Part shown: piece after piece, positions 13,332 to 60,517 of the stretch
Layout of the letters: each line of letters opens with the position of its first letter
How positions within the stretch are numbered: position 1 is the first letter of the stretch
Assembly (NCBI GenBank): GCA_032372955.1
Contig: GCA_032372955.1_4725.1
DNA from: Escherichia coli
GTDB taxonomy: Bacteria > Pseudomonadota > Gammaproteobacteria > Enterobacterales > Enterobacteriaceae
DNA length: 64,000 bases
Reading direction: 5' to 3' (one strand)
Notes under the pieces: model-generated
The model's database searches: none
What the model saw: the letters and a program-made list of their open reading frames with translations, nothing else
What the model was told of the DNA's origin: nothing
Translations under genes and position numbers: made by a program

Positions 13332-13356
13332 TTTCGCGACTACATTACCTAGGTGA
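13332..13356 (+). promoter_or_regulatory. conserved 25-nt promoter-like motif, copy A
   Basis: TTTCGCGACTACATTACCTAGGTGA, located 35 nt after hairpin copy 2 and ~200 nt upstream of gene 13559. Confidence 0.55.
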
Positions 13357-19811: not shown

Positions 19812-19836
19812 TTTGACGCTTACATTACCTAGGTGA
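19812..19836 (+). promoter_or_regulatory. conserved 25-nt promoter-like motif, copy B
   Basis: TTTGACGCTTACATTACCTAGGTGA, located 34 nt after hairpin copy 4 and ~150 nt upstream of gene 19986. Confidence 0.55.
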
Positions 19837-47260: not shown

Positions 47261-47276
47261 TTTTAATTAATCTCTC

Positions 47277-47308
47277 CCTTCCTCCTTCCCTGTTGGGTTG
47301 GAGGAAGG
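47277..47308. terminator. conserved Y/R hairpin, copy 8
   Basis: ccttcctccttccc-tgtt-gggttggaggaagg, then tttatg. It marks the end of the structural block, just before the ORF-free region. Confidence 0.7.
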
Positions 47309-47399
47309 TTTATGTTTGTGATTATTCTTCTCTTTTATAATTTCTAATGATAAGATTAAGTACCTGGAGTAAAAGTTTACAGATGTTGTAAATGTATTT

Positions 47400-47740
47400 G
47401 GAAAGTAAAATTTCCACGACCTCGGCCCCTTCGGGGGACGGGGGAGGAGCGAAGTCCTTTAGAGACGAGCAACAGGATAACTCTAAGAAAAAGAAAAACT
47501 AAACGAGCGAAGCGAGTTTATGTTTTTATCCTTAGAGTTATCAAGCTATAAGCGTAGCGTTAGCGTATAACGGTTATGTCGTATACGAATGCAATGAGTA
47601 TAGACGAGATACTCTGATGAACAACGTGAAGAAGAGTATCACAAATGTTTTTTGAGTTATCCGGATTTAACTAGCATGTAACGAAGTGTAATGCACAGAT
47701 GACATGTGTTACCGTTAAGGTAGTAAACACATGTTATCCA
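47400..47740 (+). ncRNA. candidate structured-RNA region (array of stem-loops); strand and function unknown
   Basis: The hairpins are: 47420-47443 (10 bp, cUUCGg loop); 47476-47542 (12-bp perfect outer stem gataactctaag/cttagagttatc with an inner imperfect stem); 47579-47607; 47608-47640 (gatactct/agagtatc); and 47702-47734 (acatgtgtt/aacacatgt). There is no ORF of 60 aa or more on either strand. Confidence 0.3.
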
Positions 47741-47990
47741 TTGTTTTGAAGATAAGCTTATTAACTTACTTTTAAATCAATTTAAATATACAAACAACTT
47801 AAACATACCAAGATAAAACAATTGAACCTAAGATAAACAAGATAACTTAGACAATACACTTTTAACGAATACAGATAACATCTTACTTAAATCAAAATAC
47901 CTATCCTCGTTTACCTTCCTTGCTTGCAACACCTCTTCTAAATCCATCCCTTCTTAAGAAACAACAAAACCCTTACTGTAACACAAATCC
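47741..47990. repeat. AT-rich non-coding segment with AGATAA/GATAAC iterons and a CTTACTT(TT)AAATCAA direct repeat
   Basis: AGATAA occurs at 47750, 47811, 47831, 47840 and 47873. The direct repeats are at 47765-47780 and 47882-47895. Confidence 0.5.
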
Positions 47991-48015
47991 TTTCACGACT
48001 ATATTACCTAAGTGA
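47991..48015 (+). promoter_or_regulatory. conserved 25-nt promoter-like motif, copy C
   Basis: TTTCACGACTATATTACCTAAGTGA, located 82 nt upstream of gene 48098. Confidence 0.55.
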
Positions 48016-48097
48016 TGCGTACGTACGATGTTCGTATTGCGTCAAATAGAACTCAATACGTTGTTTAATTAACGTGAAAAACAGAGGAACTTTTTAA

Positions 48098-48880
48098 ATG
48101 AACGATGAAATCATTTTTGATACCATGTTTACTGGAGATGAATACCTGGCGTTACCGAGCGATGTTCAAAACGAATGCGTGAAGGTAGCATGCTACAGCG
48201 GCGGTCAGGCTGGGATGCGTGTACGTTGCGTTGACGGGACGAACGGGAAAGTTGTTTGGCGTGGTGCTCACACGTACCCTTACCTGCTTACCGGCAACAA
48301 GAATTGGTACGCTCATCGCAGCCAGCATCCTGCACGGATGAGCGCGAGCGGATTCGTGGTACGTGGTGCGTTGGATGAACGGGTGGAACGCATCGAGATC
48401 ACCGATCGCGCGTTCATCGATCAGCTTGCACAGGTTGCTTACGATGAGGGACGTGCAACAGGGCGATACGGTTGGTTGAAGGTGAACAGCGATACGCAAT
48501 TACAGGTAGGATTCCATCACGCGCTTCCTGGGTGGGCGAACCATACCGTTGGAACGTATTACACCAAAAAGCTTACCATGGTGAAACCTTACATGGCGGA
48601 TGCGAGCTTGGAGGCAACGGATCAGATGCATCAATTGCTTCGCATGTATTATCCACGGGTGGTGCATCCACTTGGGTTCGCTTGGGTCAGCGAAGTGCGC
48701 TACAACCCACGCAAGAAACGCGTTGAAGCGAAGGTGCTTAACGAACGTTGGTTACCGGTTGTGCAACCAGGGCTTGACGATGAATCCATCATGATGCGGG
48801 TAAGCCGAAGCCGGTTCGTACAATGGGATGCTACCATGCTACAACGCCCACAACACGTTACAGGAGAAACGTTCGCATGA
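48098..48880 (+). CDS. hypothetical protein (260 aa)
   Basis: AGAGGA RBS. It is the first gene after the ORF-free region and the promoter-like motif at 47991-48015. Confidence 0.6.
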   Translation: MNDEIIFDTMFTGDEYLALPSDVQNECVKVACYSGGQAGMRVRCVDGTNGKVVWRGAHTYPYLLTGNKNWYAHRSQHPARMSASGFVVRGALDERVERIEITDRAFIDQLAQVAYDEGRATGRYGWLKVNSDTQLQVGFHHALPGWANHTVGTYYTKKLTMVKPYMADASLEATDQMHQLLRMYYPRVVHPLGFAWVSEVRYNPRKKRVEAKVLNERWLPVVQPGLDDESIMMRVSRSRFVQWDATMLQRPQHVTGETFA

Positions 48881-49176
48881 TACGCGCAACAGGATACGAA
48901 AACAAAGGCAAGAACAGCGTGCAGCGTTACGTTGCCGACGAGGAAGGGAAAGCAGAATACCTGGATTGGTTCAACCGTTACAGCGCAAGCAAGGTACGTG
49001 ATCCTAGCATCCTGAGGTTACAGAGCAGTTTCCAATGGCAGGCTTCCGAACAACGCTGGTACATCACGTTGGAAATCGGAACGGTACGGGAAGACCAGCT
49101 TCCTGCATACTTAAAAGAACAACGGGAGCAGATCAACACATTACTCGCACAACACAAAACGGAACCTAAACCTTAA
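48877..49176 (+). CDS. hypothetical protein
   Basis: ATGA overlap with the upstream stop, with AGGAG 10 nt upstream. The track start is 48823. Confidence 0.55.
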   Translation: MIRATGYENKGKNSVQRYVADEEGKAEYLDWFNRYSASKVRDPSILRLQSSFQWQASEQRWYITLEIGTVREDQLPAYLKEQREQINTLLAQHKTEPKP

Positions 49177-49216
49177 TCCAACACCAACAAGCGAAAAGGA
49201 AAGTACAACAGAAATC

Positions 49217-49492
49217 ATGTTGATGAAACCGACAGCAAAGAACAAGGTTTATAAAGCAATCTACGCGTCAGACACAGTCAGCCTGACGAAGATCATCAAA
49301 TACAAACTTGAGAAGGTGCTACGTGTTGAACCGAGCATAGGCTTAGTCCGTTATCGCCTGATTACCGAGAACGGTGAAGGGTATTACGCACCGTCGTCTC
49401 GAAGCGATAACGCCGTTGTGTTAACCCGGGATGTGGTTGAAGCAATCAACAACGGAACGAAGGCGTTCTACGCGCACAGAAAAGCCGTATAA
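49217..49492 (+). CDS. hypothetical protein
   Basis: 91-aa ORF. The RBS spacing is long, so the start is uncertain. Confidence 0.45.
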   Translation: MLMKPTAKNKVYKAIYASDTVSLTKIIKYKLEKVLRVEPSIGLVRYRLITENGEGYYAPSSRSDNAVVLTRDVVEAINNGTKAFYAHRKAV

Positions 49493-49569
49493 CGCAATAA
49501 ACGAATCCAAAGAAGGGAAACTATACCTTAACTTAAAACGACGCTTAGAGAGCGTTACAGGAGCTTAGA

Positions 49570-49977
49570 ATGCAACATGATCAAACGAACACCACCGCAA
49601 CGTCAATAGCCCTTGCCGATGCCGTCCAGGCGTGGAACGAGAACCCAGCCTGTCGAGCAAAGATGGAATTGGTGTACGAAGGATCAACCCGTGTCAGGAC
49701 GGCTGATGATGTTCTGGTCGTACGAGGTGAATTCTTCGCCTTAGGTGTCACGGACCGTGGTCCGTTAGATGCGCTTTGGATCGAGTTACAAACCTGCCCG
49801 CAGAGACCACGCTACGTGACCCGTGACCATCGTCCTGAGAACGCGTTGGTCGGAACCGGTTCCGTGGATATTTTCATCTGGCAGGATACCCTCGACAACA
49901 TGAACAAGATGATCGACGTTGAGAACATCGTTGCAAATAAGTTAACCCAACTTAAAGAACGTCTGATGCCGCTATAA
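49570..49977 (+). CDS. hypothetical small protein, possible distant member of the tandem family at 50090-51341
   Basis: AGGAG 6 nt upstream. VLVVRGEFFALGVTDRGPLDALW resembles the strand-turn-helix motif of the next three genes. Confidence 0.5.
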   Translation: MQHDQTNTTATSIALADAVQAWNENPACRAKMELVYEGSTRVRTADDVLVVRGEFFALGVTDRGPLDALWIELQTCPQRPRYVTRDHRPENALVGTGSVDIFIWQDTLDNMNKMIDVENIVANKLTQLKERLMPL

Positions 49978-50035
49978 CGCATCAACATCACCCGCCTGTA
50001 CCTCATCGTGTTCGGGCGGGGCAATAAGAAACCAA

Positions 50036-50053
50036 GGGGACATCGCCGTCCCC
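50036..50053 (+). terminator. short GC hairpin between genes 49570 and 50090
   Basis: ggggac-atcgcc-gtcccc. It has no clear U-tract. Confidence 0.3.
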
Positions 50054-50089
50054 GTTACTATCATCAACCACTATCAAGAGGAACCTACC

Positions 50090-50533
50090 ATGGAAATTAA
50101 ATTCTGTAAATCGATCGCGATTGTACCTGAACAACCTGCGGATGATCTCGAAAAGCTCGATCATCCCACACTGCAACATGCGCTGGAACGTTTAGCCTCT
50201 TTTGCGCCGTTAGAGAATCATCTTCACTGCGTTAATCTTGAAGCATCCGACTTCGACGTGAAGCTTGGGTTCGTGTTTTCACAAACGGGGAAGGATGTGT
50301 TAGAAAACATATTCTGGTCTGCTGAGCATAAGGCGAGAAATGTGATGACGAAGTTAGTTTATAACGTTAGCCTTAGTGAAGACGGCACCTATTGGACGTC
50401 AGAGGCTTGCTGGACGATTTCTGCGATTTCACGAATGGACAAAATACACTATTTGCATCGTGTTGCTGATAGCATTGTACACCAACTGGATCGTTTTGAT
50501 ACCACCCGCTTATCGAATGGAACACAGTGTTAA
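50090..50533 (+). CDS. small tandem-family protein
   Basis: AGAGGA RBS. VKLGFVFSQTGKDVLENIFW aligns with the P2 and P3 motif. Confidence 0.55.
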   Translation: MEIKFCKSIAIVPEQPADDLEKLDHPTLQHALERLASFAPLENHLHCVNLEASDFDVKLGFVFSQTGKDVLENIFWSAEHKARNVMTKLVYNVSLSEDGTYWTSEACWTISAISRMDKIHYLHRVADSIVHQLDRFDTTRLSNGTQC

Positions 50534-50548
50534 TACGAGGAATCGAAC

Positions 50549-50977
50549 ATGCAAATTAAATGGCCTGAATCAGCAGTAACTGCAGCGCGCGTTGGTCTTT
50601 ATCATTCGCTGGTTGCTCAGCATACCAGCTTACATCGCACCCTATCACTTTTACGCGAAGACGAAAAACTACGTGAACACATTCAGCCGATCTCAGCATC
50701 AATGAATGCGAACACGTTGTCTATGCGTTGCGTTCGATTGACTTTTGTGTGTACCACGTTAGGAAAGACGTTGCTTGAGGCTGCCTATCTTCGTTGTTGC
50801 GAAAGCACGACGTTCACCGACGATATGGTGTTGTCGATCGAGATGTATTGTCAGACAAATGGAATACGTCAACCGCAGATAGTTTGGAAAATATACGGAT
50901 TGACACCAAAAGTAATCAGCACGAAGTTAGATGCGGTTGCTAATAGCCTTAATGAAATTTTGAAAGAAGGAATTTGA
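50549..50977 (+). CDS. small tandem-family protein
   Basis: GAGGAA RBS. RCVRLTFVCTTLGKTLLEAAY aligns with RCILTFTCTKKGVTVIRDVW of the next gene. Confidence 0.55.
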   Translation: MQIKWPESAVTAARVGLYHSLVAQHTSLHRTLSLLREDEKLREHIQPISASMNANTLSMRCVRLTFVCTTLGKTLLEAAYLRCCESTTFTDDMVLSIEMYCQTNGIRQPQIVWKIYGLTPKVISTKLDAVANSLNEILKEGI

Positions 50978-50978
50978 T

Positions 50979-51341
50979 ATGCAACAACGTATCGGTTTAT
51001 CGCTCGCCATTGACCGACTGATCAAAGTCTCATCGTTACGAAGTGAATTTGTTGGCGTCCGTGAAGAAGCGGCGAATAACCGCTGTATTTTAACGTTTAC
51101 GTGTACCAAGAAAGGCGTGACGGTTATCCGTGATGTTTGGGACGCTGTGAACAAACGTGAACCCCGCTGCTCGGTATCTGTCGTTGATTACAAAAACCTG
51201 GATAATACTTACACTATCCGTTTAGAATGGGAGCATCGCCTCAGGACATTCGTTGAAGTTCGGTCGAAGCTGTTAGCTGAATTGTTGAACGAAGCCTGTT
51301 TACGTGACGAGAACGCTACAGAACTCTTCAGAACGCTTTAA
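50979..51341 (+). CDS. small tandem-family protein
   Basis: It starts 1 nt after the previous stop, with AAGGAA upstream. It shares the motif described above. Confidence 0.55.
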   Translation: MQQRIGLSLAIDRLIKVSSLRSEFVGVREEAANNRCILTFTCTKKGVTVIRDVWDAVNKREPRCSVSVVDYKNLDNTYTIRLEWEHRLRTFVEVRSKLLAELLNEACLRDENATELFRTL

Positions 51342-51447
51342 TTCAATCTTAGATAAGGAAACCCCTTAGAAATTAAAACAAACCGTTATACGTCGTTCTG
51401 TGACGTTTAAGCTATACATTGAACTCATGGCAATCGAGGAAAGAAAA

Positions 51448-51837
51448 ATGTTAAATTCAACTTTTACCCACTATCTCCACACCTATGCAAAATTATGCTG
51501 CGTTGACATGGAAGAGCTCGCGAACGATAATACTGTTCGCGATTGTGAGATGCTTCCTAAGCGACAAGGTTTTCTACCCGGTTCGCGGTCAGCGGCGTTC
51601 TTCTTAATCGCTTACTTCATCGTTAGTCATAGTGCGGCGCTGTTGAGCCAAACCAAGAAACAGCGAAAGGATTACGCTACCGCAATCACTCAAGTTTATT
51701 TCGATCGTCTTCACGGACGTGCAGTGAGTATCGATACCGCGTTAACGACCGCGTTTCGTCATCGAGGCGCAACCGCGGTACAGCTACCTGCTTTGGTTAA
51801 GATCGGAAAAGAAATCATCCAGAATGCAACGCGTTAA
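51448..51837 (+). CDS. hypothetical protein
   Basis: I chose ATG 51448 as the start (GAGGAAAG 8 nt upstream); the track start is GTG 51400. It contains a hydrophobic stretch, AAFFLIAYFIVSHSAALL. Confidence 0.45.
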   Translation: MLNSTFTHYLHTYAKLCCVDMEELANDNTVRDCEMLPKRQGFLPGSRSAAFFLIAYFIVSHSAALLSQTKKQRKDYATAITQVYFDRLHGRAVSIDTALTTAFRHRGATAVQLPALVKIGKEIIQNATR

Positions 51838-51852
51838 TAAATAAACCATAAA

Positions 51853-51888
51853 CCTTCCTTCCCCGGCCTTTACGGCTAGGGAAGGAGG
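51853..51888. terminator. conserved Y/R hairpin, copy 9 (variant, between convergent genes)
   Basis: ccttccttccccggcc-tttac-ggctagggaaggagg. TTTATG is on the minus-strand flank (51847-51852), and a T-run lies at 51903-51909. Confidence 0.6.
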
Positions 51889-51907
51889 TTGTATAGCATT
51901 TCTTTTT

Positions 51908-52996
51908 TTATTGGAACGGGTCTGTACGACCGCTGCCACGATCTACACCACCGTGATCGTGGGTGTATACGTTTGTTCCGGTTGGTGAACGCCAAGAGCC
52001 TGCGATGTGTATGAAGTTCCCATTCAACGTCATCGTGTTCCCGTCTTCACCTGTGAAGCTTACAGCTCCAGTGAATACCGTATTAGGACATTTGAACGTG
52101 GTCTGTCCTGATACTTGCGCGGTGTAGCGATCACACTTCAAAGAAACATTCTGGCTCGTAACGCTTTCTGTTTTACTGGTACGCTCGAAGTTCTCACATT
52201 CGGTATAAATGTTTTTTGCTTTCATTCGGATATCGTTCTTAGCAATTGCTTTGAGCGTATCCTCGCATTGGAATGTGATGTTCTTTTTTGTCACGTCGAT
52301 GATGCTGTCGTCCTGGTTTTGATAACGCAGCATATGCTCGACAAAATGGAGTAACAGCAGATTTTGATGGACGCTGTCCGCAACCTGTAGGTAACCCTCG
52401 TCCAGATTAAGTTCCATGTAGACTTGGGTAACTTCACCAAGCTGTGCGCTGGTGCCGATAACCGCTTTCTTGAGGAAAGTATCAACCATTAGGTAATAGC
52501 AGTCTTCCGTTGAAATCGATTTACGGTCCTTCTTGGCGCTAGGACGTGCGCTGATGGTGAGGATAACCGATTCCATGGTCATCAGCTCGCTATCCCCTCC
52601 TTTGGGCTGCCAGTATAGCTGTTCTTCATCGGCGGTACGCCAGACCACCACACGCTGACCTTTCCTCAAGTTAGGTGCTGTCATCCGGTTACTGCCGAAG
52701 GGTAACCAGTAACACTGTACGCTGGTTGTTGTTGCCGCTTTCGCCGTATAACTGTTCCCTTGAGCGTCTGTTGCACTGACTTCTTTCACGCTTCCCGCCG
52801 CTTCAACTTTCCCGTCAGCACCTGACATCATCTCATCAAGAAAGACCTCCAGCGCCTGGTTAGGATCTTCTTCCAGACTTTTATTGGAAAAGTCGGCAGC
52901 AACAGTACCCAAGGCAAAGATACGGAAAACGCTTACGTTGTTGTCTGGAGCTAGCTGACTCCCTTTTGTGCGATTGTCTGTTGCCAGATCGCTCAT
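51908..52996 (-). CDS. baseplate central spike / gpV-like (P2 gpV, Mu gp45 class) protein
   Basis: AGGAG 8 nt upstream. An OB-like segment, WLPFGSNRMTAPNLRKGQRVVVW, resembles the P2 gpV N-domain. The C-terminal apex VYTHDHGGVDRGSGRTDP resembles gpV HTHKHPGDSGGTTGSP (HxH metal-binding tip). Confidence 0.6.
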   Translation of the reverse strand: MSDLATDNRTKGSQLAPDNNVSVFRIFALGTVAADFSNKSLEEDPNQALEVFLDEMMSGADGKVEAAGSVKEVSATDAQGNSYTAKAATTTSVQCYWLPFGSNRMTAPNLRKGQRVVVWRTADEEQLYWQPKGGDSELMTMESVILTISARPSAKKDRKSISTEDCYYLMVDTFLKKAVIGTSAQLGEVTQVYMELNLDEGYLQVADSVHQNLLLLHFVEHMLRYQNQDDSIIDVTKKNITFQCEDTLKAIAKNDIRMKAKNIYTECENFERTSKTESVTSQNVSLKCDRYTAQVSGQTTFKCPNTVFTGAVSFTGEDGNTMTLNGNFIHIAGSWRSPTGTNVYTHDHGGVDRGSGRTDPFQ

Positions 52997-60492: not shown

Positions 60493-60517
60493 TTTTCACG
60501 GCTATATTACTTAAGTG
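60493..60517 (+). promoter_or_regulatory. conserved 25-nt promoter-like motif, copy D
   Basis: TTTCACGGCTATATTACTTAAGTGA, located 24 nt upstream of ORF 60542. Confidence 0.55.

Follow-up and report, generated by a model that had tools for sequence, protein, structure and literature searches.

The stretch of DNA analyzed here, referred to as the window, is 64,000 nucleotides long and is part of contig GCA_032372955.1_4725.1 of an Escherichia coli assembly. The genes in question are three adjacent small open reading frames (ORFs), starting at positions 50090, 50549 and 50979, together with a fourth ORF starting at position 49570. The region 48000–52000 of the window is matched with 92% nucleotide identity by the phage Goslar (Escherichia phage vB_EcoM_Goslar), which makes the window a piece of a Goslar-like chimallivirus, in agreement with an earlier sequence-only reading of this DNA, in which a large phage was suspected. 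Goslar is a nucleus-forming jumbo phage of the Chimalliviridae, and it is the E. coli model for such phages. In Goslar, the orthologues of the ORFs starting at 49570, 50090, 50549 and 50979 are gp018, gp017, gp016 and gp015, respectively, with the order kept, and these names are also used below for the genes of the window; all four are annotated as "hypothetical protein" in Goslar (NC_048170, with HOV27_gp015-017 for the last three). Profile comparisons identify gp015, gp016 and gp017 (the trio) as ancient tandem duplicates of one small α/β domain. The coordinates, the plus strand, the spacings (15 nt between gp017 and gp016, 1 nt between gp016 and gp015) and all peptide strings quoted in the sequence-only reading are found as such in the sequence, and a Shine–Dalgarno sequence is present for each of the four ORFs.

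When the window proteins themselves are compared pairwise with BLAST or phmmer, the raw similarities are weak (20–22 bits), as would be expected if the likeness among the three ORFs were due to chance or composition and the genes were unrelated. Profiles were therefore compared, built from the orthologues in nine Goslar-like genomes (eight further genomes and contigs beyond the window). The gp017 and gp016 family profiles align over their full length with an hhalign probability of 97.2% (E 3e-11; 93.9% with the first, poorer profiles), and the N-terminal motif M-x-I-K-[WF]-x-x-S is common to both families. The match of gp015 to the merged gp016+gp017 profile has a probability of 81.7%, an E value of 1.1e-5 and a score of 36.0 over 80 columns, and gp015 is without about 21 of the N-terminal residues that are present in gp016 and gp017. 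As a null for this score, 150 column-shuffled decoys gave 11.9±2.3, with a maximum of 21.3, such that the gp015 score is reached by 0 of the 150 decoys. The three pairwise alignments of the trio have a mutually consistent register, and in hidden Markov model (HMM) scans of 1822 ORFs of at least 50 residues, covering the window and the rest of the Goslar genome, the trio genes match only each other. Clearly, similarities that are significant against shuffles, in register, transitive and exclusive among these ORFs make the chance or compositional explanation hardly credible, and it is refuted for the trio.

For gp018 this explanation is the default. Three to four tandem paralogues had been proposed from the sequence, with the ORF at 49570 as the more distant fourth member; profile alignment, which had been suggested as a check, finds significant similarity among three genes when calibrated against shuffles, whereas gp018 has a profile score of 11.5, which is at the null level (73 of the 150 decoys score equally high or higher). 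The hhalign comparisons of gp018 with every other family, and with the TYW3-like family described below, are also at the null level. Its AlphaFold2 model, calculated from a shallow alignment in which all homologues are at least 92% identical, has a predicted local distance difference test score (pLDDT) of 36 and is unusable for fold comparison. The membership of gp018 in the family is thus unsupported.

The structure prediction of the window gp016, for which a 22-sequence alignment of gp016 and gp017 relatives was used as input of AlphaFold2, is confident (pLDDT 86.7, predicted template modelling score 0.83), so that the proposed comparison of predicted structures could be made with this protein, unlike with gp018. 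The model has the topology α-ββ-α-ββ-α, consisting of α1 (residues 20–42), β1 (45–54), β2 (60–68), α2 (70–86), β3 (93–101), β4 (107–117) and α3 (120–140). The strand-turn-helix core, the strand ending in a tryptophan and the C-terminal helix that were noticed in the sequence-only reading correspond to β2-α2, β4 (with the invariant Trp) and α3 of this model. The best fold matches are TYW3-like archaeal proteins and small TYW3-like jumbo-phage proteins, and after these structures the model resembles many generic two-layer α/β sandwiches among solved structures. A Foldseek search of the gp016 model against the PDB gives nothing at E ≤ 1e-3, and the gp016+gp017 profile finds nothing among the PDB sequences. 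Against the predicted viral structures of BFVD, nine matches are obtained at E ≤ 1e-3 (E 6e-6 to 7e-4, template modelling scores of 0.5–0.63), all of which are uncharacterised jumbo-phage proteins of 150–170 residues, from the Erwinia phages Stratton, Simmy50 and Kwan, from PhiPA3 (gene 356) and from 201phi2-1, PDCC-1 and RaK2; VP4B and Kirov occur lower in the viral list.

At least three of these nine matches (PhiPA3 gp356, Simmy50 and Kwan) are confirmed by tblastn or alignment as members of one phage family. For PhiPA3 gene 356, the annotation states a similarity to phiKZ gp290, on which nothing relevant was found in the literature. As a tblastn query, this gene retrieves a weak but coherent family from phiKZ-like jumbo phages and from those of Erwinia, Vibrio and Bacillus, a family that overlaps with the Foldseek list. 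In an alignment of eight family members, an Asp, an Asn, a Cys and a His are invariant, and the motif 'N-x-i-x-g-v-a-T-v-y-C-C-x-G-H' is present. The profile of this family has exactly two matches in the whole PDB, being the TYW3-like structures 2drv (E 0.004) and 2qg3 (E 0.06), with the TYW3 '...IN...TTSSCSGR' motif in the aligned segment; Pfam TYW3 also matches four of the eight members. Goslar gp096 is a canonical member, with SCEGH (E 6.7e-9). This family, with its invariant C-x-G-H, is widespread in jumbo phages, where it is annotated solely as "hypothetical"; pTD1 gp175 also belongs to it. The gp096 gene is located outside the window, on the minus strand of NC_048170 at 109585–110085, and further loci of the family are found at L015 22374–22868, L021 2468–2965 and L022 2462–3394 (the L numbers denote other contigs and genomes compared). 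Several of these phage genes adjoin nucleotide-metabolism genes, such as those of thymidylate kinase or synthase.

The trio itself aligns with the profiles of this phage family with E values of 0.006–0.02 and probabilities of 2–6%, and the register is always the same, running from β2-α2 through α3. The motif N...T-x-x-C/S-C-x-G-H, when searched for in all ORFs, occurs only in gp096 and is absent from the trio. Pfam TYW3 (PF02676) has no match to any window protein, even at E ≤ 1, and the conserved TYW3 motif helix-N-x(5-7)-T-x-S-C-S-G-R is missing, the corresponding segments being REHIQPISASM in gp016, NHLHCVNLEA in gp017 and SEFVGVREEA in gp015. As judged from the predicted structure, the domain of the trio is TYW3-like at the fold level, and from this likeness we infer homology to TYW3-like proteins. 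Because the Asn...Cys-x-Gly-His motif of the TYW3-like phage family is absent, gp015, gp016 and gp017 are probably not enzymes. The statement that no known fold can be assigned is therefore superseded by the gp016 model, which reveals a TYW3-like α/β domain without the catalytic motif.

At the level of detectable sequence similarity, the trio family is confined to Goslar-like phages. A search of 5.8 billion clustered proteins gives solely Goslar-like matches for the trio, and when 1.84 billion representatives were searched exhaustively by HMM, the gp016+gp017 profile had no match beyond Goslar-like phages; in this search, gp015 was not retrieved at library-wide significance. With each paralogue as a tblastn query against 50,697 phage records, Goslar alone is found. 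Pfam and PHROG scans of all eight proteins of the operon described below give nothing but a weak phrog_43 match for gp015.

In this region, the window carries an exchanged segment relative to Goslar. The identity to Goslar is 100% across 49200–50500, then 56–76% over gp016 and the first half of gp015, and then 95–98%. Between the window and Goslar, the nonsynonymous (dN) and synonymous (dS) divergences of gp016 are 0.30 and 1.42 (dN/dS ratio ω 0.21), with a dS of 0 for gp017. When the nine genomes are compared, most gp016 and gp017 pairs have dS values of at least 1 and are saturated, and all eight operon genes are under purifying selection, with median ω values of 0.15–0.25. At 80% identity, there are five classes of gp016, three each of gp017 and gp018 (the gp018 alleles of 135 and 156 residues are 33–38% identical) and four of gp021, and the gp016 classes combine freely with the gp017 classes; gp014, gp015, gp019 and gp020 are conserved, with 76–96% identity between genomes for gp015. 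Since ω is about 0.15–0.25 and dS is saturated, the diversity of gp016 and gp017 reflects reshuffled old alleles, and recent positive selection as the cause of the gp016 divergence is rejected on the same grounds. By this sequence comparison, the gp016 of the window is an old allele that was acquired through recombination and not the product of an adaptive burst. The description of the family as fast-diverging is therefore misleading: it captures that gp016 and gp017 are very diverse, but gp015 is conserved and the ω and dS values are those of old alleles. The copy number in related genomes, which had also been proposed for comparison, is constant, with exactly one copy of each trio gene in all nine genomes.

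Within gp016, the variation is concentrated at residues 50–61 and 79–129, which in the model correspond to strands β3 and β4 along with the β1-β2 tip, the end of α2 and the first half of α3, and the conserved residues are 1–10, 26–47, 62–78 (including TFxCTxLGK) and 130–142. The net charge of the gp016 alleles ranges from +2 to -7.

The trio is preceded by a promoter-like motif located 5' of the gp021 homologue (Table 1). In the Goslar early-infection-vesicle study, the transcription start region of chmA was mapped from RNA sequencing at 5 min post infection. This region carries 'tttcagggtTATATTACCTAGGTGa' in Goslar, and the window carries 'tttcacgacTATATTACCTAAGTGa' 83 nt 5' of the gp021 homologue, which differs from the chmA motif at one R position over 15 nt. 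Four occurrences of the degenerate 15-mer TAYATTACYTARGTG are found in the window, where 0.03 are expected, always on the coding strand and upstream of an ORF, and in the rest of the Goslar genome there are seven further sites with at most one mismatch. The other copies in the window are at 13341–13355, 19821–19835 and 60503–60517 (plus strand), each 5' of a plus-strand ORF. These sites and the one at 48000 probably make up the motif C that the sequence-only reading had described as driving this gene set. The core 'tttcacgRcTAYATTACYT' is kept upstream of the gp021 homologue in eight of the eight genomes checked. We take this motif to be the phiKZ early promoter, which is used by the virion RNA polymerase. 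The short core TATATTAC alone occurs at chance frequency in the window, and only the extended motif is informative; this motif agrees with the published 201phi2-1 consensus and with the phiKZ 'TATATTAC' core.

No further copy of the motif is present within 48100–51900, scans for σ70 promoters and intrinsic terminators are at the background level, and the hairpins at both ends of the gene block (Table 1) are the only strong ones in the region. Because there is a single promoter motif, with strong hairpins only at both ends, gp021 to gp014 thus form one eight-gene transcription unit, running from the promoter at 48000 to the distal hairpin, in which the trio is distal. The close match with the motif at the chmA start region, active at 5 min post infection, indicates that this operon is very probably early, and the earlier description of the trio as early proteins is likely to be right. 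As a global figure, 175 of the 249 Goslar genes are expressed at 5 min post infection according to the published RNA sequencing.

Table 1. Features of the gp021–gp014 operon and its borders (positions in the window)
Feature	Position	Strand	Remarks
Strong hairpin	47277-47308		Ends gene upstream of operon
phiKZ-type (early) promoter, tttcacgac TATATTACCTAAGTG	47989-48014	+	83 nt upstream of gp021 ATG
gp021 homologue, 260 aa	48098-48880	+	First operon gene; separate tandem family, 1-4 copies in relatives
gp020 homologue, 99 aa	48877-49176	+	Conserved; unrelated to trio family
gp019 homologue, 91 aa, basic	49217-49492	+	Unrelated to trio family
gp018 homologue, 135 aa, acidic	49570-49977	+	Proposed fourth member; membership not demonstrated
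Weak hairpin between gp018 and gp017	49991-50020	+	ΔG -17.1, z -1.9; not significant, probably no terminator
gp017 homologue, paralogue 1, 147 aa	50090-50533	+	100% identical to Goslar gp017
Low-identity segment (minimum 56% to Goslar)	50500-51200		Flanks 100% and ~97%; recombination-swapped allelic cassette
gp016 homologue, paralogue 2, 142 aa	50549-50977	+	Distinct allele class, 56% identical to Goslar gp016; modelled protein
gp015 homologue, paralogue 3, 120 aa	50979-51341	+	Distant member, 93% identical to Goslar gp015
gp014 homologue, 129 aa, basic	51448-51837	+	Last operon gene; unrelated to trio family
Strong hairpin terminator	51851-51890		Shared with convergent gp013; ΔG -26.3, z -4.4; terminator in Goslar annotation
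Spike gene gp013	51908-52996	-	Convergent with operon

The gene block is flanked by the abundant DUF7941 virion proteins gp022/gp023 and by the convergent baseplate spike gene gp013. An 838-bp noncoding, AT-rich stretch (GC 0.41; window 47261–48097) precedes the promoter; its core at 47400–47600 is 100% identical to Goslar, and indel-rich 'aagataa' repeats are found at 47780–47870. Rfam has no match anywhere in the window. Two of the operon genes are longer in the program-made ORF list than in the Goslar annotation, namely gp020 (117 aa from the ATG at 48823, compared with 99 aa from 48877) and gp014 (145 aa from the GTG at 51400, compared with 129 aa from the ATG at 51448). The shorter starts of both genes have the better ribosome-binding context, and the gp020 start at 48877 overlaps the gp021 stop by 4 nt.

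The gp021 family is present in one copy in the window, in Goslar and in L002 and in up to four tandem copies in related contigs (arrays at L005 1856–3717, L007 1637–4317, L010 1973–4696, L011 1619–4316 and L014 2037–3901); the extra copies have 278–298 residues and a common C-terminal half (hhalign 98%, E 8e-14). Five related genomes have an extra acidic gene of 145 aa between gp019 and gp018 (L005 4034–4471, L007 4634–5071, L009 3328–3765, L011 4634–5071 and L014 4219–4656), which neither the window nor Goslar has, and for which no relation to the other island genes could be detected. Two chimeric ORFs occur in Logan contigs: P0023 combines residues 1–42 of the 156-aa gp018 allele with residues ~70–138 of gp017, and P0049 combines gp021 residues 1–90 with gp018 residues 64–135, with an 'RG' common to both at the junction. 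Natural deletions that fuse island genes would give such ORFs, but so would assembly artefacts. Outside the window, at 83289–88051 of NC_048170, Goslar has an unbroken one-strand run of eight hypothetical genes, gp070–gp077, of 133–212 aa, which may be a further tandem family.

It is possible, and of the roles considered here it is the most likely one, that the trio are host-interaction proteins, acting either in anti-defence or in the evasion of host sensing of early proteins; this proposal, taken with all its inferred steps, is tentative. The host-takeover or anti-defence role put forward in the sequence-only reading is plausible. Given the early-type promoter shared with chmA, translation of the trio would take place in the cytoplasm of the host, on the first transcripts to emerge from the early infection vesicle. 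These three proteins, which are tightly coupled, would bind rather than catalyse, as the enzyme motif is missing and invariant polar residues are few. A conserved scaffold would be formed by α1 and the β2-α2 'TFxCTxxGK' element together with the N-terminus and the C-terminal helix, and a variable surface by β3-β4 together with the β1-β2 tip, the end of α2 and the N-terminal half of α3. gp016 could then be a swappable specificity cassette, with at least five deep allele classes recombining among otherwise near-identical phages. The proteins would most likely target a host factor or defence factor that varies; another possibility is that host sensors recognise the variable surface. Several points weigh against this proposal. 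The early timing is read from the promoter motif, the gene-wide ω values give no sign of positive selection, and a housekeeping role would be just as compatible with the constant copy number and the purifying selection. In addition, the copy number of gp017 in the virion preparation discussed below (~19) is in the same range as that of the five virion RNA polymerase subunits (7–21 copies), and literature searches on Goslar gp015–gp021 found no paper mentioning these genes.

Alternatively, the trio could have a phage-internal function, such as that of a chaperone or assembly factor needed by early infection structures or by the phage's own machinery, and the diversity of gp016 and gp017 would then be a neutral old polymorphism spread via recombination, or an escape from host sensors, and not a targeting of host factors. 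This would agree with the presence of one copy of each paralogue in the nine genomes and purifying selection throughout, with the conservation of the N- and C-terminal modules and with the translational coupling, which suggests a complex; as context only, early chimallivirus proteins are known to trigger host sensors such as Avs5. However, the family is absent by sequence from all other chimallivirus genera, and because of this absence the trio is not part of the conserved nucleus-forming core. The free assortment of gp016 and gp017 alleles also argues against tightly co-evolved partners, and a phage-internal role is considered rather unlikely. JADA, the Avs5 activator, was checked and is unrelated. 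It is less probable still that the trio occurs in the virion at low copy number, whether packaged and injected or as part of the peripheral baseplate, as might be suggested by the locus between the virion genes gp022/gp023 and the spike gene and by published label-free mass spectrometry of purified Goslar virions, where about 18.6 copies of gp017, 3.8 of gp018 and 0.6 of gp016 per virion are reported and gp015 was not detected. In the same preparation, chimallin, PhuZ, ChmC and thymidylate synthase are present at equal or higher levels, and the authors of that study describe that nucleus fragments co-purify with virions. Because nonvirion proteins are equally abundant and nucleus fragments co-purify, these data prove the translation, not the virion residence, of gp016, gp017 and gp018. 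None of gp014–gp021 is among the 28 structural proteins modelled in the published cryo-electron microscopy structure of Goslar, in which the hub and inner-baseplate density is assigned to other proteins, and the operon, which lies on the strand opposite to the spike gene, has a promoter of the early type. The 46-residue match of gp015 with phrog_43 (T4 gp25-like baseplate wedge subunit, E 0.0014) points in the direction of the baseplate, but gp015 as a baseplate wedge is rejected because the hub and wedge density is assigned elsewhere and virion peptides are absent.

The TYW3-like fold could also mean that the trio are active enzymes that modify RNA or a nucleotide, and a phosphate-binding loop might be formed by the Gly-Lys at the start of helix α2, which is invariant in gp016 and gp017. 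However, the N...T-x-x-C-C-x-G-H and S-x-S-G-R motifs are missing in all three paralogues, which Pfam TYW3 does not match, gp015 is without even the Lys, very few polar residues are invariant in the trio and a motif-bearing canonical copy, gp096, is already present in the genome, making enzymatic activity very unlikely. There is a somewhat better, yet slim, chance that the trio are dead TYW3-like tRNA-modification domains, redeployed as early cytoplasmic RNA- or tRNA-binding or decoy proteins, with gp016 as the exchangeable specificity cassette. If this were the case, translation would be protected from RNA- or tRNA-targeting defences, the one class of immunity from which the nucleus cannot hide the genome.

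As it stands, the trio is an ordinary lineage-specific early accessory gene family, for which the host-interaction role is a reasonable but unproven candidate. The genes are already known, having been deposited as hypothetical proteins of Goslar; new are the paralogy, the TYW3-like fold with the link to an unannotated jumbo-phage family, the assignment of the operon and the cassette behaviour of gp016. The paralogy, the fold and the allelic cassettes of the trio are not annotated, and no paper describing them was found. Most early Goslar genes are without a known role, and the trio is a genetically tractable candidate set, offering a defined fold, a conserved scaffold, a variable surface and natural, swappable gp016 alleles. 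Goslar-like phages hold a canonical TYW3-like copy (gp096) together with three motif-less derivatives. If the trio counters or evades cytoplasmic defences, this bears on how chimalliviruses survive before the nucleus forms.

The closest known relatives are the direct orthologues gp015–gp017 of Goslar, with identical order and operon, from which the window differs by carrying another gp016 allele (56% amino-acid identity, dS 1.42). The jumbo-phage TYW3-like proteins (phiKZ gp290, PhiPA3 gene 356, Simmy50 gp319, Kwan gp140-141, Kirov gp171 and gp096) are of similar size (145–170 aa) and have the same β2-α2-β3-β4-α3 order, with profile alignments to the trio that are weak and in register, and the Kwan proteins gp140 and gp141 also form a tandem pair. 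Unlike this family, the trio is without the invariant Asp, Asn, Cys and His and without 'CC-x-G-H', and the sequence relation is not significant (probability at most 6%). The predicted fold is also that of the TYW3/Taw3 tRNA-wybutosine N4-methyltransferases (PF02676; 2drv, 2qg3, 2dvk and 1tlj), compared with which the trio proteins are about 50 residues shorter, have about 10% identity, have no S-x-S-G-R and have no Pfam match. The likeness to other ββα-ββα sandwiches, such as DCoH, RNA polymerase α/RPB3-11, Pcc1 and the Mfd C-terminal domain, is topological only. Tandem families of small, lineage-specific early genes are familiar in large lytic phages, such as T4, phiKZ and their relatives. 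Like these arrays, the trio is small, promoter-proximal, lineage-restricted, variable between close relatives and tandem-duplicated; unlike them, its copy number is fixed at three and its diversity, rather than coming from changes in copy number or from recent positive selection, arises from the exchange of old alleles.

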